NCBI GenBank assembly: GCA_963785725.1
Contig: CAWAWS010000019.1
Span: forward strand, 132,323 to 196,322
Length of the DNA stretch: 64,000 nt
Source: an uncultured delta proteobacterium
GTDB taxonomy: Bacteria > Myxococcota_A > Polyangia > Palsa-1104
Direction of reading: 5' to 3'
Positions within the stretch are counted from its first letter, which is position 1; each line of letters begins with the position of its first letter. The notes under the pieces were generated by a model. That model was not told the DNA's origin. It worked only from the letters and a program-made list of their open reading frames with translations, and made no database searches. Of the stretch, positions 729-9,123 are shown piece after piece. The translations under genes and the position numbers were made by a program.

Positions 729-757
729 TTGAATCGTGCCCTCGCTTCAGCTACGAT
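729..757 (+). promoter_or_regulatory. Putative sigma70-type promoter of the ECF sigma gene
   Basis: TTGAAT-17 nt-TACGAT, followed by GAGGGGAG RBS and GTG at 790. Confidence 0.45.
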
Positions 758-789
758 CGTTGAACGTCTGGCGACGCCGAGGGGAGCTG

Positions 790-1389
790 GTGCGGGACGA
801 CGCGGACGAGTCGCTGATGCTGCGTTATCGCGACGGCGACGTCCGCGCCTTCGAGCTGTTGGTGACGCGCCATCGTAAGCCGCTCTACAACTTCATCCTG
901 CGCTTCGTGCGCGACTCGGCGCAGGCCGAAGATGTCACGCAAGAGACGTTCCTGCGTCTGGTGAAGGGCGCCGATGCCTACGAGCGGCAGGCCAAGTTCA
1001 CCACCTGGCTGTACACGATCGCGCGCAACTTGTGTGTCGACGCGTCGCGCCGCGCCAAGCACCGCAAGGCGGCGTCGCTCGATGCGCCCGTCGGTGACGA
1101 CGACGGCTCGGCGGCGCTCATCGACTTCGTGCCCGACTCGGGCGCCGGCGTCGATCGGCAGGCGCAGAGCCGCGAGCTGGCGATTCGCATGCGCACGGCG
1201 ATCGAAGCGTTGCCCGACGAGCAGCGCGAGATATTCTTGTTACGTGAAGTGGCCGACCTGCAGTTCAACGAGATCGCGGCGGTGGTCGGCTGCCCGGAAA
1301 ACACGGTGAAGAGCCGGATGCGCTATGCCCTCGAGAAGCTGCGTGAAGCGCTCGAGGAATATCGAGATCTGGCGAGAGCTGTACAGTGA
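790..1389 (+). CDS. ECF-family RNA polymerase sigma factor
   Basis: Region 2 AEDVTQETFLRL...KFTTWLYTIARN; region 4 LPDEQREIFLL...EIAAVVGCPENTVKSRMRYA. Confidence 0.93.
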   Translation: MRDDADESLMLRYRDGDVRAFELLVTRHRKPLYNFILRFVRDSAQAEDVTQETFLRLVKGADAYERQAKFTTWLYTIARNLCVDASRRAKHRKAASLDAPVGDDDGSAALIDFVPDSGAGVDRQAQSRELAIRMRTAIEALPDEQREIFLLREVADLQFNEIAAVVGCPENTVKSRMRYALEKLREALEEYRDLARAVQ

Positions 1390-2939
1390 GCGAAGCGACT
1401 TCACAGACGGCGGCGTGCGAGCAGCTGCTCGACTACGTCTACGACATGCTCGACGGGCCGCAAAAGGCCGCGTTCGAGCAGCATCTGGCGACGTGCGCGC
1501 GTTGTCAGGCGGAGGCGGCGTCGTTCGGCAAGGTGCGACAGGCGACGGCGAAGCTCATGCCCGACGTCGAGCCGACCGCGAATTTGACGGGCGCGCTGCA
1601 CGCGCAGCTGATGCATGCGGCCGCGCAGCGCAAGCCGAGCCGCGGCAAGCTGCTGGCGTTCCCGCGCAAGATCGTGCAGCACCCGGCGTGGGCGGCGGCG
1701 GCGATGTTCGTCATCGTCGGCGGCGCCATCACGATCAACGCGCTCCGCGGCAACTTCGCGATGCCGACCACGAGCAGCTCGACGGCCGTAGAGACGGTGT
1801 CGGCTCCAGTCCCCGCGAGCCCGCCGCTGGCGCAGCCGGTCGCCGCCAGTGATGACGCCGTCGCGTCCAAGACGGCGAAAGCGGAGGCGCCGTATGGCGG
1901 CGCGATCGCAGACAAGTTGGAAGCCAAGAAGAGCGCGCCCCCGTCGGCCAAGCATCGTAAAGCGGGGCCGAGCGACGAGGGTGAAGCGCTGGGCGGAGTC
2001 GGCGGGCTGGCGGTGAAGAACGCGACGTCGGGTGGCGGCGGCGCGGCGGTGGCCAAGCCGAGCCTGCGCGCGGGCAAGCAAGCTGCGCTGGACTCCGATG
2101 ACATGAAGTTGATCCAAGACGGCAGCCTCGTGGGCGGGCGGGCGAAGGACGCGCCGGCCAAGCCGGCGGCGACGAGCGTGGCGCGGCTGTCCAAGGAAGA
2201 GGAGCACGCGCTCGATCAGGCCGCGGCGCCGGCACCGTCGGCGACGAACGAGCCCGAGCGCGAACGCGCGGTGACGGCGGCGCCCGCCTCGGCCGCGCCA
2301 CCGCCGCCTTCGGCGCCGGCACCGTCGGAGAGCGTGGCGCAGTCGAGCACGCCGTCGGCTTACGGCTACAAAGGCTATCGCGCGCAGCCGCCGCAGCCGG
2401 CGAGCGTGATGCCGCAGACCGCGGCGCAGGCGCCGCCGATGGCGATGGTGCAATCGAGCGCGCCGCCGCCGCAAGCCAGCGCGCCGGCGCGGGCCCAGCA
2501 GCAACAGCGGAGCCGCGGTTACACCAGCGCGCTGTCGGCGCCGGCCGCGACCGCTCCGCAGCCGCAGGTCGAGGATTTACACCAGCGCGCCGACGATCTG
2601 GTGCGCGCCAATCGCTGCGACGACGCGGTCAAGGTGTACGCCGAGCTCGATCGCCGGTCGCAGCGGATGTCGCCGAAGGAGCGGGCGAACTACGTGCGCT
2701 GCTTGACGGCGACGGGACGGCAGCAGGCGGCCGAGCAGCAGCTCGACGAGCTCAAGGCGGATAAGAGCGTCACCAACGGGCTCGTGCAGCAGGCGGAAGG
2801 CGACGTGCAGACGGGGCGACGCAGCGAGAAGCCGAAGTCGGCTAAGAAGTCGGTGCCGAACGCCGATCGCGCGCTGTCGCCGCCTTCCGACGTGGCGCAG
2901 CCGACGCCGGTGCAGGCCGTGACGCCGGCGAAGAAGTAG
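1386..2939 (+). CDS. Anti-sigma factor (zf-HC2/ZAS) with a TM helix, a long Ala/Pro-rich linker and a C-terminal TPR-like domain
   Basis: HLATCARC motif, hydrophobic segment WAAAAMFVIVGGAITI, GTGA overlap with the ECF gene. Confidence 0.85.
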   Translation: MSEATSQTAACEQLLDYVYDMLDGPQKAAFEQHLATCARCQAEAASFGKVRQATAKLMPDVEPTANLTGALHAQLMHAAAQRKPSRGKLLAFPRKIVQHPAWAAAAMFVIVGGAITINALRGNFAMPTTSSSTAVETVSAPVPASPPLAQPVAASDDAVASKTAKAEAPYGGAIADKLEAKKSAPPSAKHRKAGPSDEGEALGGVGGLAVKNATSGGGGAAVAKPSLRAGKQAALDSDDMKLIQDGSLVGGRAKDAPAKPAATSVARLSKEEEHALDQAAAPAPSATNEPERERAVTAAPASAAPPPPSAPAPSESVAQSSTPSAYGYKGYRAQPPQPASVMPQTAAQAPPMAMVQSSAPPPQASAPARAQQQQRSRGYTSALSAPAATAPQPQVEDLHQRADDLVRANRCDDAVKVYAELDRRSQRMSPKERANYVRCLTATGRQQAAEQQLDELKADKSVTNGLVQQAEGDVQTGRRSEKPKSAKKSVPNADRALSPPSDVAQPTPVQAVTPAKK

Positions 2940-3666
2940 CCGGCAGATCGAAGAGACCGAGCTGGCGGCGATCGTCGGGCACGTCGTGCCACGGATCGAA
3001 CGCGTCACCCAGCAGATCGCGCGCGAAATCCCACGGCCACGAGCGGCGCGCCTCCGGCGGCAGCGCGCCGTGCCGCTCGATGTAGGCGCGCAGGAACGCC
3101 TTCGTCGGCGCGTTGCAGTAACCGCCGCCGCCACCGACGACCTCCTCGCCGAAGTCGGGCGCGTAGCGACGGCAGATCTTGGCCCACAGCTGATCGCGGC
3201 GGACTTTGGCGACGATCGAGGCGGCCGCGACCGACGCGTGCTCGAGCTCGCCGCCGTCGAGCGCCTCCAAGTGCGGCCAGCGCGCTTGCAGCGGACGAAA
3301 CAGCCGCTCGCCGTCGCACACGATGCGTCGCGCCGGCGGTGCCCGCTCGATCAGCTGCGCCGCGCGCTCCTGCTCGAGCCGGTTGAGCCCGTTGTCGCGG
3401 CAGCGGCGATCGATCTCGGCCACGTCGACGACGGCGACCGCGACGTAATCGGCCGCCTCCAAGATGCGCGCGATGAACGCCAGCCGCGCCTCGTGCGCGC
3501 GCTCGCCCGAGAACGCCTTCGAGTCGGTGACGCCGGCGCGCGTCAGACCGGCGGCTTTGCGCGGGCGCAACGCGACGCAGGCCATGACCATCGGGCCCAA
3601 AATCGGGCCGCGACCGGCCTCGTCGACACCGAGGACCAGCTCGTCGTGAATGAAGGGCGCGGTCAC
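2842..3666 (-). CDS. rnhB: Ribonuclease HII (archaeal/eukaryote-like sequence type)
   Basis: GVDEAGRGPILGPMV, DSK and VAAASIVAKVRRD motifs; GTG start overlaps the stop of the upstream gene. Confidence 0.9.
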   Translation of the reverse strand: MTAPFIHDELVLGVDEAGRGPILGPMVMACVALRPRKAAGLTRAGVTDSKAFSGERAHEARLAFIARILEAADYVAVAVVDVAEIDRRCRDNGLNRLEQERAAQLIERAPPARRIVCDGERLFRPLQARWPHLEALDGGELEHASVAAASIVAKVRRDQLWAKICRRYAPDFGEEVVGGGGGYCNAPTKAFLRAYIERHGALPPEARRSWPWDFARDLLGDAFDPWHDVPDDRRQLGLFDLPATSSPASRPAPASAAPRRKAATARDRRSAPTS

Positions 3667-6566
3667 GTCAGCGAATCTAGCGCGTTCGTCAGCTGTTCGA
3701 CAGGGGCCATGACGCGCTCCTCGATCTCCAGCCGATCGATCTCCACGGCCACGCGCAAACGGGTCAAACGCGCCAGCAAGCTGCCGTAAAAACGCTCGGC
3801 CCAGGCACGCAGCGGCGCGCGCAGCTCGGTCTCGGCCACGTCGTCGCTCCACGGCGCGTCGCGCTCGAGGGCGCGCCGAATGGCCGCTTCCGACAGGTCG
3901 AGCTTGGGCAGGATGCGCGTGAAGAAGTCGTCGACGCGGCCGCCGCGCAGCCAACCGCGCGCAAAGGCGCGAAAGCGACCGAAGACCTGCTCGCCGAGCA
4001 AGGACAGCTCGGCGTCGAAGCGCGCCTCGCCGCCGGCTTGCACGACCAGCGGCCGCACGAGCGCGATGGCGCGTTCGGCCTCGGCCTCGGCGCGCACGCG
4101 GGCATCGGCGAGCAGCGCGCCCAGCCGCTCGTCGAGCAGCTGAATCAGAAAGTCGCGATCGGCCGGCGCCGCCTCGTTCGAGCCGAACGGCCAGCGCCGC
4201 GGCCGCACGAAGTCGAGCACCTCGCGCGCACAGGCCGCGTACACCGCGTCGGCGGCGTCGTTCAGCCGGCGCCGCTCGTGCACGATGAACTCGCGCGTGA
4301 ACTTCAGCTGCTCGGCGCGAACGGCGCTCTCCGCCTCCGCGATCGGCTCGAGCGTGCGGCGGTCGAGCTCGGCCTGACCGCGGCCGCGCGCCTCGCCGAG
4401 CAGCTGCCGCAACCGCGCCGTCGCCGCCTCGCGCTTGATGGCGCGCGCTCGCGAGAAAAAGCGCGCCTCCAGCGCCTCGGCCAGCGCCGGATAATTCGAC
4501 GCCGCCAGCTGCTCGGCGTCGCCCGACTTGCGCGCCTGCAGCGCCTCGCGCCCGGCGAACGGCACGACCGTCTCCAAGTTGTCGCCCAGCGCCGCTTGCA
4601 CGTGCGCGATGATCTGGCGCAGCTCGTCGGGCGTGCAGCGATCGATCTTGTTCAGCACGCCCAAGATCTTCTTGCCCGCCGCTTTGATCCGCGTCAGCGC
4701 TTCGCCTTCGGTCGCCTTCGCCGCTTGATCGACCGTGAACAGCCACAAGACCGCGTCGGCTTCGGCGATGAACTTGCGCGCCGTCTCCTCGTGCTCGGGA
4801 TGAATCGAGTTCAAGCCCGGCGTATCGACGACGTTGACGCGCTGAAGCACCTCCAGCGGATACAGCACTTCGACGACGCGGATCTTCTTCGCCTCGACGG
4901 CATCGAGCTTCTTGAGCCACTTCGGCACGTCGGCCCAGGCCAGCTCGCGCGTCGAGTCGTCGAGCTGCACGATGCGCCCTTTGCGCTCGCTGCCGTACTT
5001 GAGCACGTTGATCGTCGCCGTCGTCGGGGTGATGCCCATGGGCGCGATCTCTTCGCCGATGAGCGCGTTCACGAACGTCGACTTGCCCGAGTTGAACTCG
5101 CCCATCACCGTCACCAACAGCGGGCGATCGAGCACCTCGACGAGCCGACCGGCTTCCGGCGACAGCTCGGCCAGCTCCCGCGTGCGCGCGAACAGCCGAT
5201 GCGCCTGCACCAACAGCGGATAGAGCTCGTTCGAGGTCGGCGACGGTGGCGTGGCCGACGACGGATCGCGGTAGACGTCGGCGAGCCGCGCGCGTGGCCG
5301 CGGATCGGCGGGCGCGATCTGCGCCGCGCGGCGCAGCGACGTCGCCGCCAGCGCCGGCTGACCGCGCAAGAGCGCCACCTCGGCCGCCGCCAAGCGCGCC
5401 TCGAGCCCGTCGGAGATCGCCAGCGCGCGATCGACGAGCGACTGCGCGCGATCGAGCTCGCCCGTCGCCGCCGTCGCCAACGCCGAAGCCGCCAGCGCGT
5501 CGGGATGGTCGGGATTGTCGGCCAACAGCGCGGCCGCGTAGCTGCTCGCGCGTGCCGTCGCGCCCGCGCGCAAGGCCGTCAGCAGCGCCTCCTCGATGAG
5601 CCCGCGCCGATCGAACAGGAGCAGCGGCGTGCGCGGCGTGACGCCGGCGGAGGCGCCGACGAGCGCGCGATCGTACGCCGCCAGCGCGTCGTCCCACTGC
5701 GCGGCGCCGGCGTAGACGCGCGCCAACATCGTCAAGACGTCGGGGCGCGCCGGATCGCGCTCCAGCGCGCGCATGGCTTGGTCGCGCGCGGCCTCGGGGT
5801 CGCCGCTCGCCAACGCCAAGCGCGCCAGGCCCAAGCGCGCCGAGATCTGCACTTCGTCGTCGCTCGTCGGCGACGACAAGGCGCGCTGATAGGCATCGCG
5901 CGCGTCGTTCAGTCGCTGCAGCCGCTCGAACAGATCGCCGAGCGACGCCAAGCCCAGCGGATCCGGCCGCGCCGCCTGTGCCGCGCGCTCCAAGCAGACG
6001 CGCGCCGTGTCGTAGTCGCCGCGCAAATAGAGCGCGCGGCCGAGCAAGCCTTGCGTCTCGGCGTCGTCGGGCGTGGCCGCGACCGCCTTGCGCAGCTCGC
6101 GTACGGCTTTGTCGTAGCGGCGCTGACGCAAATAGACGCTGCCCATACCGCGGTAGATTTCGGCGCGCATGGCGGACTCGCCCACGCCGGAGTCGAGCGC
6201 CGCGCGATAGGCGTCGATGGCCGCGTCGTCGTCGCCGCGGCGGCGCTGCACGTCGGCGAGCGCCAGCCACGCCTCGGGAAAGCCGGGCCGATCGCCGCCC
6301 ACGCGTCGCGCCGTCGCCGCATGCTCGAGCGCGGCCACCGCGTCGTCGTGATCGCCGCGCCGCGCATAGGCCACGCCGAGCAGATAGGACGCGCGCGGAT
6401 GATCGGGCCGCAGCTCGACGGCGCGTCCGAGCTCGCTCACGGCGGAATCCAAATCGCCCCGATCCAAGTACGCCGCGCCCAATTCGACATGGGCGCGAAC
6501 GTCGTCGGGGACGATTAGGTCGCCGAGCTGCTCGGCGATTCGGTCGATTCGGTCGAAGATGCCCAC
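3663..6566 (-). CDS. TPR-repeat protein fused to a dynamin-like GTPase
   Basis: N-terminal TPR array, then P-loop GEFNSGKST, PTT, DTPG and NKID motifs and a helical C-terminus. Confidence 0.88.
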   Translation of the reverse strand: MGIFDRIDRIAEQLGDLIVPDDVRAHVELGAAYLDRGDLDSAVSELGRAVELRPDHPRASYLLGVAYARRGDHDDAVAALEHAATARRVGGDRPGFPEAWLALADVQRRRGDDDAAIDAYRAALDSGVGESAMRAEIYRGMGSVYLRQRRYDKAVRELRKAVAATPDDAETQGLLGRALYLRGDYDTARVCLERAAQAARPDPLGLASLGDLFERLQRLNDARDAYQRALSSPTSDDEVQISARLGLARLALASGDPEAARDQAMRALERDPARPDVLTMLARVYAGAAQWDDALAAYDRALVGASAGVTPRTPLLLFDRRGLIEEALLTALRAGATARASSYAAALLADNPDHPDALAASALATAATGELDRAQSLVDRALAISDGLEARLAAAEVALLRGQPALAATSLRRAAQIAPADPRPRARLADVYRDPSSATPPSPTSNELYPLLVQAHRLFARTRELAELSPEAGRLVEVLDRPLLVTVMGEFNSGKSTFVNALIGEEIAPMGITPTTATINVLKYGSERKGRIVQLDDSTRELAWADVPKWLKKLDAVEAKKIRVVEVLYPLEVLQRVNVVDTPGLNSIHPEHEETARKFIAEADAVLWLFTVDQAAKATEGEALTRIKAAGKKILGVLNKIDRCTPDELRQIIAHVQAALGDNLETVVPFAGREALQARKSGDAEQLAASNYPALAEALEARFFSRARAIKREAATARLRQLLGEARGRGQAELDRRTLEPIAEAESAVRAEQLKFTREFIVHERRRLNDAADAVYAACAREVLDFVRPRRWPFGSNEAAPADRDFLIQLLDERLGALLADARVRAEAEAERAIALVRPLVVQAGGEARFDAELSLLGEQVFGRFRAFARGWLRGGRVDDFFTRILPKLDLSEAAIRRALERDAPWSDDVAETELRAPLRAWAERFYGSLLARLTRLRVAVEIDRLEIEERVMAPVEQLTNALDSLT

Positions 6567-8317
6567 AGTTGGTCGCGTAGCGCGGTCAAGCGCGCTTCGA
6601 TCAAGGTCAGCCGCGCGGTCTGCGCCGCCAATTCCGACTCACGCACGCTCACGTCGACGCCTTGCGCGCGCCGCTCCGACAGCGCGCGGTCGAGGACCTC
6701 GGAAATGCCGCGATGAAGCGCGTCGCCGGCGGCCGTCACGAAGTCGCTCAGCCGCGCCGCGAAGTCTTCCACGATCTGCTGGAACCGCGGCGCCACCGCC
6801 TCCGCCGCCTTGTTGATGACCTCGGGCGCGCTCTTCTTCGCCTGCGACTTCAGCTCACCGGCGATGCGCTCTTTGAACACGACGGCCAAGATCGGCGCCG
6901 CCAGCGTCAACAGGCCGCCGACGAGCGTATTGACGAACAGGAAGATGCCCGTCCCCAAGGCGCCGAGCGCAAACACGCCGACGTTGTACTTGAGCGAGTC
7001 GACCTCGAGATCGATCTTCGTGTCGGCGGGACCGAGCTCGCGCGACAGCGTCGCCATCGTCGTCGCCACGTCTTCGTTGGTGACCGCGATGATCTCTTCG
7101 GCCAGCCGCTCCAGCTGCGCCGCGACTTTGTCGCCCTCTTGCTCGGCCCACAGCTTCCACGTGTCCTGAATGAACGGACCCAAGAAGCGCTTGATCTCCT
7201 CGCCGTCCGCGCGATCGATCTCCTGCGGCAGCCGCACGAGGAACTCTTTGACGAACTCCTCGAGATCGAGCCGCACGCCCGCTTCGATGGCGTCCGCTTC
7301 GGCGCGAATCTTGGCGTGATGCACCTTCAAGCGCGACTGCGCCGAGTGCAGCTGCGTGTGGACGCGCCCGATGCGCTCCTCGAGCTCCGTCAGCGCCAGC
7401 TGCAGCGAGCGCCGCTTGATGCCGAAGTTCGACGCCAAGTAGCCGCCGAGCCGCATGCCGTCGTTGATGGCGTTGTCGAGGAGCACGCGGCTGCGCTCGT
7501 CGGCGAGATAGCGGCCGAGATGACGCAGCAGCGGATCGAAGCCCGACATCGCGCGATCGGCCTCGTTGTGCGACAGCTGCCGCTTGGCCGACACCGGGAA
7601 GATGATCGGCTCCTCGACGATGCGCGCCAGATTCTCGCGGCAATAATCGAGCGCTTCCTGCCGCTCGTCCATCGTCAAAAGATCGATCTTGCCGAGCACG
7701 AAGATGAGCTTGTCCTTGGAGCGCCTAAGGATTCGCTGCTCGAGGAACGCGCGCTCCGATTGCTTGAGCACTTGCGCGCCGTCGAGCAAAAAGAGCACGG
7801 CGTCGGCGCGCGGAATGTAACCGTAGGTGATCTCGGCGCGCTGCTCGTTGATGTCGTTGACGCCCGGCGTGTCGACGAGCGTGACCTTGTCTTCCAAGAT
7901 CTCGGCCGGCCAGCCGACCTCGACGAACTTGACGTGCGACGCCTCTTTGCCTTCGATCGTCACCCACTCGCCGAGCTGACGCGGGTTGACCTCGCGCGTG
8001 GTCCCGTCGGTCAGATGCGCCATCGCCCGCGGCTGCACGGCCCACGTCAGATGGTTGATCGTCGCCGTCGTGGGCGTGATTCCGGCCGGCAAGATCGCCG
8101 CGCCGCACAAGGCGTTCACGAACGTCGACTTGCCGTGGTTGAACTCGCCGAGCACGACGAGCGCGAACCGCTCTTCGTCGAGCTTCGGGATGCGCGTGTT
8201 GTTCAGATCGTTCGCCAGCGACGACATGCCTACTTCGTCGGCCAGCGCCGAGATCTCACGCAGCGCGCGCAACAATTCCTGCTTGATGGCGGCGTGCTCG
8301 CCGGCGATCGCGGTCAT
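6515..8317 (-). CDS. Bacterial dynamin-like GTPase with a membrane paddle
   Basis: GEFNHGKST, PTT, DTPG and GKID motifs; hydrophobic hairpin VGVFALGALGTGIFLFVNTLVGGLLTLAAPILAVVF. Confidence 0.9.
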   Translation of the reverse strand: MTAIAGEHAAIKQELLRALREISALADEVGMSSLANDLNNTRIPKLDEERFALVVLGEFNHGKSTFVNALCGAAILPAGITPTTATINHLTWAVQPRAMAHLTDGTTREVNPRQLGEWVTIEGKEASHVKFVEVGWPAEILEDKVTLVDTPGVNDINEQRAEITYGYIPRADAVLFLLDGAQVLKQSERAFLEQRILRRSKDKLIFVLGKIDLLTMDERQEALDYCRENLARIVEEPIIFPVSAKRQLSHNEADRAMSGFDPLLRHLGRYLADERSRVLLDNAINDGMRLGGYLASNFGIKRRSLQLALTELEERIGRVHTQLHSAQSRLKVHHAKIRAEADAIEAGVRLDLEEFVKEFLVRLPQEIDRADGEEIKRFLGPFIQDTWKLWAEQEGDKVAAQLERLAEEIIAVTNEDVATTMATLSRELGPADTKIDLEVDSLKYNVGVFALGALGTGIFLFVNTLVGGLLTLAAPILAVVFKERIAGELKSQAKKSAPEVINKAAEAVAPRFQQIVEDFAARLSDFVTAAGDALHRGISEVLDRALSERRAQGVDVSVRESELAAQTARLTLIEARLTALRDQLWASSTESTESPSSSAT

Positions 8318-9123
8318 GCCCCTACTCCGTCGAGATCGTCGGGTTCGTCGCCTTTGCCCTTGAGAATATCGGCCACGCGCGCGTCGCACGCTTCGGGCGT
8401 GTTGCCGCCGGGCTGACCGATGATGGCGCGGTAATATTCGCTCTCGGCGAACGCGTGCAGCGCCGCGATGCGCTCGGGCGACGCGTGGGTCTTGGTCAGC
8501 GCCGACGTCGAGACATCGAGGTCGCGCGTGCACAAAAGGCCGGCACGATCGATCGTCACCACCGCGCGCCGCTGCCACGCTTGCAGCGCAGCTGTCGCCG
8601 GCGACACGATCCAGCGAACGTAGCGGGCCGCGAAGTGCTCCAAATAGTAGAGCGCCGTCGCCGGCAAGACATGCTGGTTTTGAATGCGTCCGAGCTGCCG
8701 TCCGACCGCGTCGACGAGCTCGGCGTCATTCAGATCTTCGACGAGCGCGCCCGACAAGACGAGATAGGCGTCATCCTCGGCACCCAACGTCTCGGCCGTC
8801 AGCGTGCGATCGGCCGCCGCGACATACGTCGTCGGCGCCGGCACGCGCAGCCGCTCGGCACACTTGGCCACCGCCGCGAACACGCGCGGCTCCTGCTTTT
8901 GCGTGACCTTGACCGCGCCCGCGAGTAATTCCGCGCGCGCCGCCGAGCGCCACAGCCGCTCGGTCGCCTCCAGCGCCAGCTTCACCGGCGCCAGTCGATC
9001 GAGCGCGCGCAACAGCCGCAGGTCGCCCGCATATGCGTACGCCGCGCCTTCGCGCGCCTGCGCTTGCAGCGCGCCGCGACGGCGTTCCACGTAGCGTTGA
9101 AAGTCGAAGTCGATCGTCGCCAT
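8314..9123 (-). CDS. M48 (HtpX/Ste24)-like protein lacking the HExxH motif
   Basis: M48-like pattern (PRVFAAVAKCAERL, L..AEL..VG[RQ]LG[R]I...H, W.R.A..T.DRAGLL, THASPERI) with RQLGR in place of HELGH. Confidence 0.7.
   Translation of the reverse strand: MATIDFDFQRYVERRRGALQAQAREGAAYAYAGDLRLLRALDRLAPVKLALEATERLWRSAARAELLAGAVKVTQKQEPRVFAAVAKCAERLRVPAPTTYVAAADRTLTAETLGAEDDAYLVLSGALVEDLNDAELVDAVGRQLGRIQNQHVLPATALYYLEHFAARYVRWIVSPATAALQAWQRRAVVTIDRAGLLCTRDLDVSTSALTKTHASPERIAALHAFAESEYYRAIIGQPGGNTPEACDARVADILKGKGDEPDDLDGVGA

Follow-up and report, generated by a model that had tools for sequence, protein, structure and literature searches.

Can a bacterium hold an archaeal-like ribonuclease HII (RNase HII) on its own sliding clamp, and how would such an enzyme have come to stand in for the usual rnhB product? 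The question is raised by one gene, P0001, in a 64,000-nucleotide stretch of DNA (the window) from an uncultured delta proteobacterium of the class Polyangia (contig CAWAWS010000019.1, positions 132,323 to 196,322). The gene spans window positions 3666-2842 on the minus strand and, by translation of its open reading frame (ORF), encodes 274 amino acids from a GTG start, including GVDEAGRGPILGPMVM and GGGYCNAPTKAFLRAYIERHGALPPEARRSW. The original prediction had seen in it a laterally acquired archaeal-type RNase HII, with the bacterial beta-clamp motif QLGLF where archaea have a PCNA-interacting protein (PIP) box. On the sequence evidence set out below, P0001 is the sole RNase HII detected in its host and is archaeal-like, and we consider it probable that it displaced rnhB and that its QLGLF, as predicted here, docks in the DnaN pocket.

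The enzyme and its tail

P0001 matches Pfam PF01351 (RNase_HII) over residues 12-210 (80.9 bits; cut-off 25.8), and with QLGLF at nucleotides 2964-2950 the gene stands as it was first called. Its top solved-structure matches are Ribonuclease HII chains 1uax (E 7e-17), 1eke and 1io2, which we take to be archaeal, followed by RNase H2 subunit A (2.7e-13) and by 7uwe (3e-10) and 3o3g (6e-8), which we take to be bacterial. Matches in the ESM Atlas are RNase HII clusters only, most commonly from Myxococcota and Acidobacteriota. The best-scoring NCBIfam model is TIGR00729 (archaeal/eukaryotic RNase HII), at 90.3 bits still below its equivalog cut-off of 123.3; NF000595 (canonical RnhB; 88.6 bits, cut-off 167) and TIGR00716 (RNase HIII; 30 bits, cut-off 161.2) likewise fall short. 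The parts of the gene, which belongs to a bacterial clade here called B1, are as follows.

2842..3666, minus strand: P0001, RNase HII of the B1 clade (archaeal-like, bacterial); the GTG start codon shares nucleotides with the TGA of the gene upstream
3607..3624, minus strand: catalytic carboxylates D15-E16 and ribonucleotide-sensing G18-R19-G20 (GRG), invariant in 37/37 clade rows
3517..3525, minus strand: DSK motif D48-S49-K50, in 37/37 clade rows
3247..3315, minus strand: third carboxylate D118 to fourth carboxylate E140
3037..3129, minus strand: C-terminal subdomain G180-W210, with Y183 in GGGYxN; T188, F191, P203 and W210 are archaeal/eukaryote-like
2950..2964, minus strand: QLGLF, predicted beta-clamp (DnaN) binding motif, residues 235-239
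2842..2949, minus strand: extension after the motif, non-conserved, rich in Ala, Pro, Ser and Arg, for the most part antisense to the terminal portion of the convergent gene

The roles of the carboxylates, GRG, DSK and the junction tyrosine are known from T. maritima RNase H2 (PMC3025331; here and below, statements credited to papers refer to the portions of each that were available to us). D118 and the junction-sensing Y183 are also present in 37/37 clade rows. By analogy, P0001 most likely nicks 5' of embedded ribonucleotides (rNMPs), and it presumably does the same job as canonical RnhB in ribonucleotide excision repair (RER). With the canonical enzymes of E. coli and T. maritima it shares the DE..D core, GRG, DSK, the junction Tyr and the DG that follows the third carboxylate; the short loop at that DG and the length of the GY loop are also canonical-like. 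Unlike them, it lacks HKGY..H..HRxSF, occupies another locus and lies outside their clade. G180, T188, F191, P203 and W210 are common to archaea and eukaryotes and absent from canonical RnhB, and the archaeal/eukaryotic signature G.GY...T..F...P...R.[ST]W is present with a GY loop one residue shorter, which bears out the claim of an archaeal rather than a bacterial signature. P0001 resembles A. fulgidus RNase HII as a monomeric type 2 RNase H with these helical-subdomain residues and a clamp motif in its C-terminal tail, and its best structure matches are of the archaeal RNase HII type. It departs from archaeal RNase HII in its bacterial host, which is without PCNA, in QLxLF as against QxxLxxF, in a longer linker, in GGGYxN as against GSGYPSD, in a Glu as fourth carboxylate and in not reaching the TIGR00729 cut-off.

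The consensus for binding the beta clamp is Q-phi-x-[LM]-[FL] (pentamer) or Q-phi-x-[LM]-x-[FL] (hexamer) (PMC11139829). QLGLF lies beyond the Pfam domain, which ends at residue 210, and a canonical clamp motif is found in the tail of 112/121 close homologues (shuffle mean 0.5, maximum 4), so that the conservation asked about at the outset is present; these homologues are close kin rather than independent, and the motif counts are descriptive. A PIP box occurs in none of the 121 tails and at none of 52 clade loci. The motifs comprise 83 pentamers and 29 hexamers (for example, QLTLAL), an interchange seen among known clamp clients (for example, Pol IV RQLVLGL). By position, Gln is kept in 117/118, followed by Leu or Met in 114/118, a free third position, Leu in 116/118, and Phe or Leu at +4 or +5. 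A conserved W/F-rich segment lies just upstream. Between 0 and 74 variable residues follow the motif in homologues, 18 of which end with it; in P0001 it is followed by 35 residues, most of them antisense to the anti-sigma gene, and the motif is therefore not at the very C-terminus. Nor does it sit where archaeal PIP boxes mostly do: QLGLF begins 28 residues past the Arg of RRSW, as against about 11-16 for most archaeal PIP boxes.

The host genome (G000; 88% complete, a metagenome-type assembly) has one DnaN (C19:112037-113146), whose pocket segments TDGHRL, FPPY and MPMR are kept around T172-L177, P243 and M366; it also has one RNase HI and yields no match to PCNA. Its DinB-like, ImuB-like and DnaE2-like proteins carry QLGLD, QLSFF and QIELPL, respectively. 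Two further candidate clamp clients were noted, C2:234829-235470 (ending in QLSLL), which we take to be SRAP/YedK-like, and C15:431266-432624 (ending in QLTLL), presumably a radical SAM protein. The main dnaE (C2:95094-95900) is broken across several frames, probably by assembly indels.

The RNase HII tree and the rnhB slot

The main tree comprised 112 rows and, after removal of the tail, 199 columns, and covered P0001 and its relatives, archaea, eukaryotes, viral rows, other archaeal-type bacterial RNases HII (B2), canonical RnhB drawn almost wholly from one phylum and, in the first tree only, one RNase HIII row (L200), later dropped as a long branch. Supports are from the Shimodaira–Hasegawa-like approximate likelihood ratio test (SH-aLRT) on quick searches, and the approximately unbiased (AU) test used LG+F+G4 fast trees of 56 rows. 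P0001 falls in B1 with SH-aLRT values of 98 (non-mixture tree), 88 (mixture) and 76 (56-row tree); its named close relatives belong to Polyangia, Myxococcales, Kofleriaceae and Haliangiales, and B1 is present in SAR324 too. Canonical RnhB, together with seven viral rows, is set off by a branch of 100% SH-aLRT and length 1.1-1.5, and a position of B1 inside canonical RnhB is rejected (AU p=0.0062), so that P0001 does lie outside the ordinary RnhB clade. In mixture trees B1 is sister to archaea, eukaryotes and B2 with a weak SH-aLRT of 82-83. The AU test rejects none of the remaining placements, that is, B1 outside archaea (p=0.36) or sister to DPANN (0.13), TACK (0.14), Asgard (0.16), eukaryotes (0.29) or B2 (0.52). 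The archaeal likeness of P0001 therefore holds, and the trees do not pin down an archaeal donor. Of the proposed lateral acquisition adapted to the clamp, what survives is an enzyme that is not an ordinary RnhB and bears a conserved motif; the archaeal source does not follow from a clade whose position beside, not inside, archaea and eukaryotes is weakly supported, and none of the donor hypotheses is rejected.

Viral contigs of 103-619 kb carry B1 genes in five cases (L114-L118), with tails that lack Gln; near the gene in L115 and L116 lies an ORF ending in VLDLF/ALDLF, presumably DUF488-like. A giant-virus origin was rejected, since seven of the eight sampled viral rows join canonical RnhB, the remaining one (L118) lying inside B1, and B1 has no match in 50,697 GenBank phages.

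P0001 is the only PF01351 match in the host genome, and rplS is directly followed by yraN there, leaving the canonical rplS-rnhB-yraN slot empty; the check for a second, canonical rnhB that accompanied the original prediction thus finds none. Across the phylum, 24/38 canonical rnhB loci have rplS and/or yraN within 1.5 kb (six in the order rplS-rnhB-yraN on one strand), and at 30 rplS loci of the class no canonical rnhB lies beside rplS. Among 71 genomes of the class, 43 hold a single full-length match that scores in the range of B1 (sequence confirms 29 of them, and 14 are assigned by score alone), 3 have canonical RnhB, 16 have only a weak match of a divergent type and 9 have no match. Ten B1 carriers checked singly hold no second intact RNase HII. 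In a phylum-wide sample B1 occurs in 11/301 genomes, all within the class. In the order around an Acidobacteriota carrier (a count that leaves out G410), B1 is present in 24/25 usable genomes and a canonical copy in none. The B1 gene is old and vertically inherited in the class, not a recent arrival, and it likely displaced canonical rnhB long ago.

Two further observations concern these genomes. In one of the ten carriers (G244) the contig with the B1 gene also bears a frameshifted canonical rnhB (L194, G244:C3:1197725-1198265, minus strand), either a pseudogene or a product of assembly indels, the last frame of which ends in a clamp-like QGTLFG. The divergent RNase H2-like type, a third one, is the sole PF01351 match, a weak one, in those 16/71 class genomes; the six that were read (L260-L265, in G387, G371, G047, G382, G357 and G041) are about 305-365 residues long, score far below the NCBIfam cut-offs, and have a large insertion and GxDENGLGP, in which Leu replaces the Arg of GRG.

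Competing explanations of the tail and its origin

The broader scenario that we advance, tentatively, is that replication-coupled, clamp-tethered RER has arisen repeatedly in bacteria: B1, which is non-canonical, not nested in archaea and also found on large phages, would have replaced rnhB in much of Polyangia and in an Acidobacteriota order, and B1, B2 and some canonical RnhBs would have converged on a DnaN-binding tail.

Several observations weigh against clamp tethering or its generality. The close homologues show 65-96% identity, and conservation extends to the linker that precedes the motif. The motif is distributed unevenly in the wider clade, being present at 12/52 genome loci in strict and 23/52 in loose form (shuffles 0.6 and 1.7; the 52 include L028, B1-like by motif and outside B1 in trees) and in 8 (strict) and 12 (loose) of 82 cluster representatives. 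Acidobacteriota B1 tails are Gln-less, with the strict motif in 0/24; 23/24 have LF in the tail, in the form of LPLF, SLF or KLF. Canonical RnhB tails include 4/34 loose motifs and 1 strict one, and because some canonical enzymes carry such motifs a clamp-like tail is not confined to archaeal-like enzymes. A crude proteome of the host (a gene set without P0001) has QLxLF in 21/5907 ORFs, in 2 of them within the last 45 residues; of 9 such proteins scanned, 8 match unrelated families and 1 none, which indicates that a bare QLxLF arises by chance too and leaves this proteome-wide scan uninformative as a marker of clamp clients. The yeast PIP box, moreover, is dispensable for RER in vitro (PMC13492167). 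As to the enzyme itself, the fourth carboxylate is Glu (E140) rather than the Asp of a DEDD pattern. The resulting DEDE pattern is that of RNase HIII (rnhC; PMC9719913), from which P0001 differs in keeping Y183 and GRG and in having no N-terminal extra domain. Among 96 clade sequences the position is Glu in 52 and Asp in 43, and we read E140 as a conservative variant because mutating the equivalent carboxylate merely lowers activity (PMC3025331).

The distribution of tails also bears on how the motif came about. Archaeal RNase HII tails have a PIP box in 14/40 and the strict clamp motif in none; B2 tails have a loose QxxL[FL] in 10/18, with neither a strict motif nor a PIP box in any; and in Kofleriaceae, B2 and some canonical RnhBs, linkers that are unrelated bear similar motifs. 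Taken across groups, these counts suggest that bacterial RNases HII acquired a DnaN tail repeatedly and not through a single conversion. A one-step exchange of PIP box for clamp motif appears less likely, the motif being patchy in deeper members and present on a few canonical RnhBs; it was probably gained or sharpened within bacteria, more than once.

B2 merits description in its own right. These GSGYPSDP archaeal-type RNases HII of Planctomycetota, Verrucomicrobiota and other Myxococcota (L037, L044, L057, L079, L080, L097, L098, L102, L103, L215, L217 and L224) branch among archaea, many of them end in QxxLF in the PIP register, and a B2 protein is the sole RNase HII in 4/4 genomes of one class. 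Other archaeal-type RNases HII (L062, L076, P0371, P0287, P0295 and P0302) have a long C-terminal kinase-like extension (PF16575 on P0371) or PF14890, which we take to be an intein.

It is possible that B1 is instead an old lineage of its own, neither archaeal nor canonical and perhaps spread by phages, in which some hosts gained clamp motifs; this would be compatible with clamp binding and would depart from our preferred reading on origin only. Its case lies in the mosaic of a canonical-like DG, short loop and GY-loop spacing with an archaeal-like helical subdomain, in the three-way split of the trees, in the members on viral contigs and in the position of P0001 under both the archaeal/eukaryotic and the canonical NCBIfam cut-offs. 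However, the stems are short (0.13-0.3) and weakly supported, the long canonical branch could attract a derived archaeal gene to the position of B1 (the non-mixture tree pulled two crenarchaeal rows the same way), and the GenBank phages hold no match.

Rather more doubtful is a strict transfer, in which the gene came from an archaeon and its PIP box was converted in place to a clamp motif. The archaeal-like residues (L94-N95-E98, G180, T188, F191, P203 and W210) and the position of B1 on the archaeal side of the tree speak for it, as does B2, which does branch among archaea with QxxLF in the PIP register. So does the precedent of NucS/EndoMS, an archaeal-type repair nuclease that replaced a bacterial system and has a PIP motif in archaea and an [EK][LY][TR]LF DnaN motif in bacteria (PMC6159515, PMC8228993). 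Yet B1 is nested in no sampled archaeal group, being sister to archaea, eukaryotes and B2 together; the AU test leaves sisterhood to DPANN, TACK, Asgard, eukaryotes or B2 all standing; relative to PIP boxes the motif is displaced outwards by 12-17 residues; and many of the deeper clade members have none.

Another role for QLGLF is unlikely, that is, that it packs on the enzyme as a structural element or binds SSB or RNA polymerase, the enzyme being untethered or coupled to transcription as in E. coli. The W/F-rich segment before the motif suggests a folded extension, many clade members lack the motif, and the E. coli enzyme associates with RNA polymerase instead of the beta clamp (PMC11253446). 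But the interchange of pentamer and hexamer, the free third position, the near-invariant Gln and the terminal motif of 18 homologues follow the grammar of clamp motifs, and motifs of this kind appear again on linkers that are unrelated.

That the gene is a contaminant, a mis-binned sequence or a recent acquisition without function has next to no probability, for although the assembly is of metagenome type with frameshifts elsewhere (dnaE), codon GC is host-like, the neighbours are conserved across several families, host dnaN lies 22 kb away on the same contig and B1 is found in 43/71 class genomes, a synteny and distribution that already refute this reading. The neighbouring genes are the following.

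3663..6566, minus strand: TPR and dynamin-like GTPase gene, upstream, conserved neighbour
1386-2939, plus strand: anti-sigma gene, convergent, conserved neighbour
736-1389, plus strand: extracytoplasmic function (ECF) sigma gene, convergent, conserved neighbour
1-678: conserved neighbour that we take, from its sequence, to be fpg

The core of P0001 has GC1/2/3 of 0.77/0.50/0.90, similar to neighbouring genes, and the post-motif extension 0.71/0.91/0.56, unlike them; the last 98 nucleotides of the gene overlap the convergent anti-sigma gene (2842-2939). The dynamin-like, sigma and fpg genes are found again beside the B1 gene across families, and the B1 gene lies 14-62 kb from dnaN in the host and five relatives. 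Directly upstream is a pair of dynamin-like GTPase genes, one of them TPR-fused (window 3663-8416, minus strand), whose place next to the RNase HII gene is conserved in several families; the TPR-dynamin gene is likely co-transcribed with P0001. A 1142-residue ORF (6270-2842) from an upstream GTG was rejected because it would run across part of the dynamin-like gene in another frame and because the homologues are 223-314 residues long.

Proposed clamp-tethered ribonucleotide repair

For clamp tethering, the reading that we prefer, the following course can be envisioned. The QLGLF tail would bind in the peptide-binding pocket of the host's beta clamp, with the segment of ~25 residues after W210 serving as a tether, and the clamp-held enzyme would nick newly made DNA 5' of single ribonucleotides, as extrapolated from T. 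maritima RNase H2. The clamp may also stimulate the enzyme, by analogy with A. fulgidus RNase HII on PCNA and with actinobacterial NucS on DnaN. A. fulgidus RNase HII acts while held on PCNA through a C-terminal PIP box (PDB 3P83; PMC3089482), reviews describe archaeal and human RNase HII enzymes as tethered to PCNA, and in C. glutamicum the last five residues of NucS mediate its activation by DnaN (PMC6159515). NucS is the nearest precedent. It differs in enzyme family and substrate, in that its binding and activation are proven and those of P0001 predicted, and in a better supported archaeal origin.

Neither an interaction of bacterial RNase HII with DnaN nor the B1 clade is reported in the literature searched (supplements excluded; motif surveys, for example, Dalrymple 2001, could list rnhB matches). 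In the portions available to us, a 2026 RNase HII review nowhere mentions DnaN and brings in the beta clamp for Pol I only (PMC13492167), a beta-clamp review nowhere mentions RNase (PMC11139829), and Kochiwa 2007 and PMC9719913 do not describe archaeal-like bacterial RNases HII.

B1 is an unnamed RNase HII subfamily outside the NCBIfam models and, with its tail, would stand beside NucS as a second instance of repair-enzyme displacement in which the clamp motif suits the host. Judged from sequence, clamp-tethered ribonucleotide repair probably exists in bacteria, and P0001 makes the replication coupling of such repair testable with one small monomeric enzyme. If QLGLF does bind DnaN, the replication clamp would recruit a bacterial RNase HII in soil lineages that are abundant, and ribonucleotide repair in these bacteria would be tied to replication as in archaea and humans, unlike in E. 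coli.

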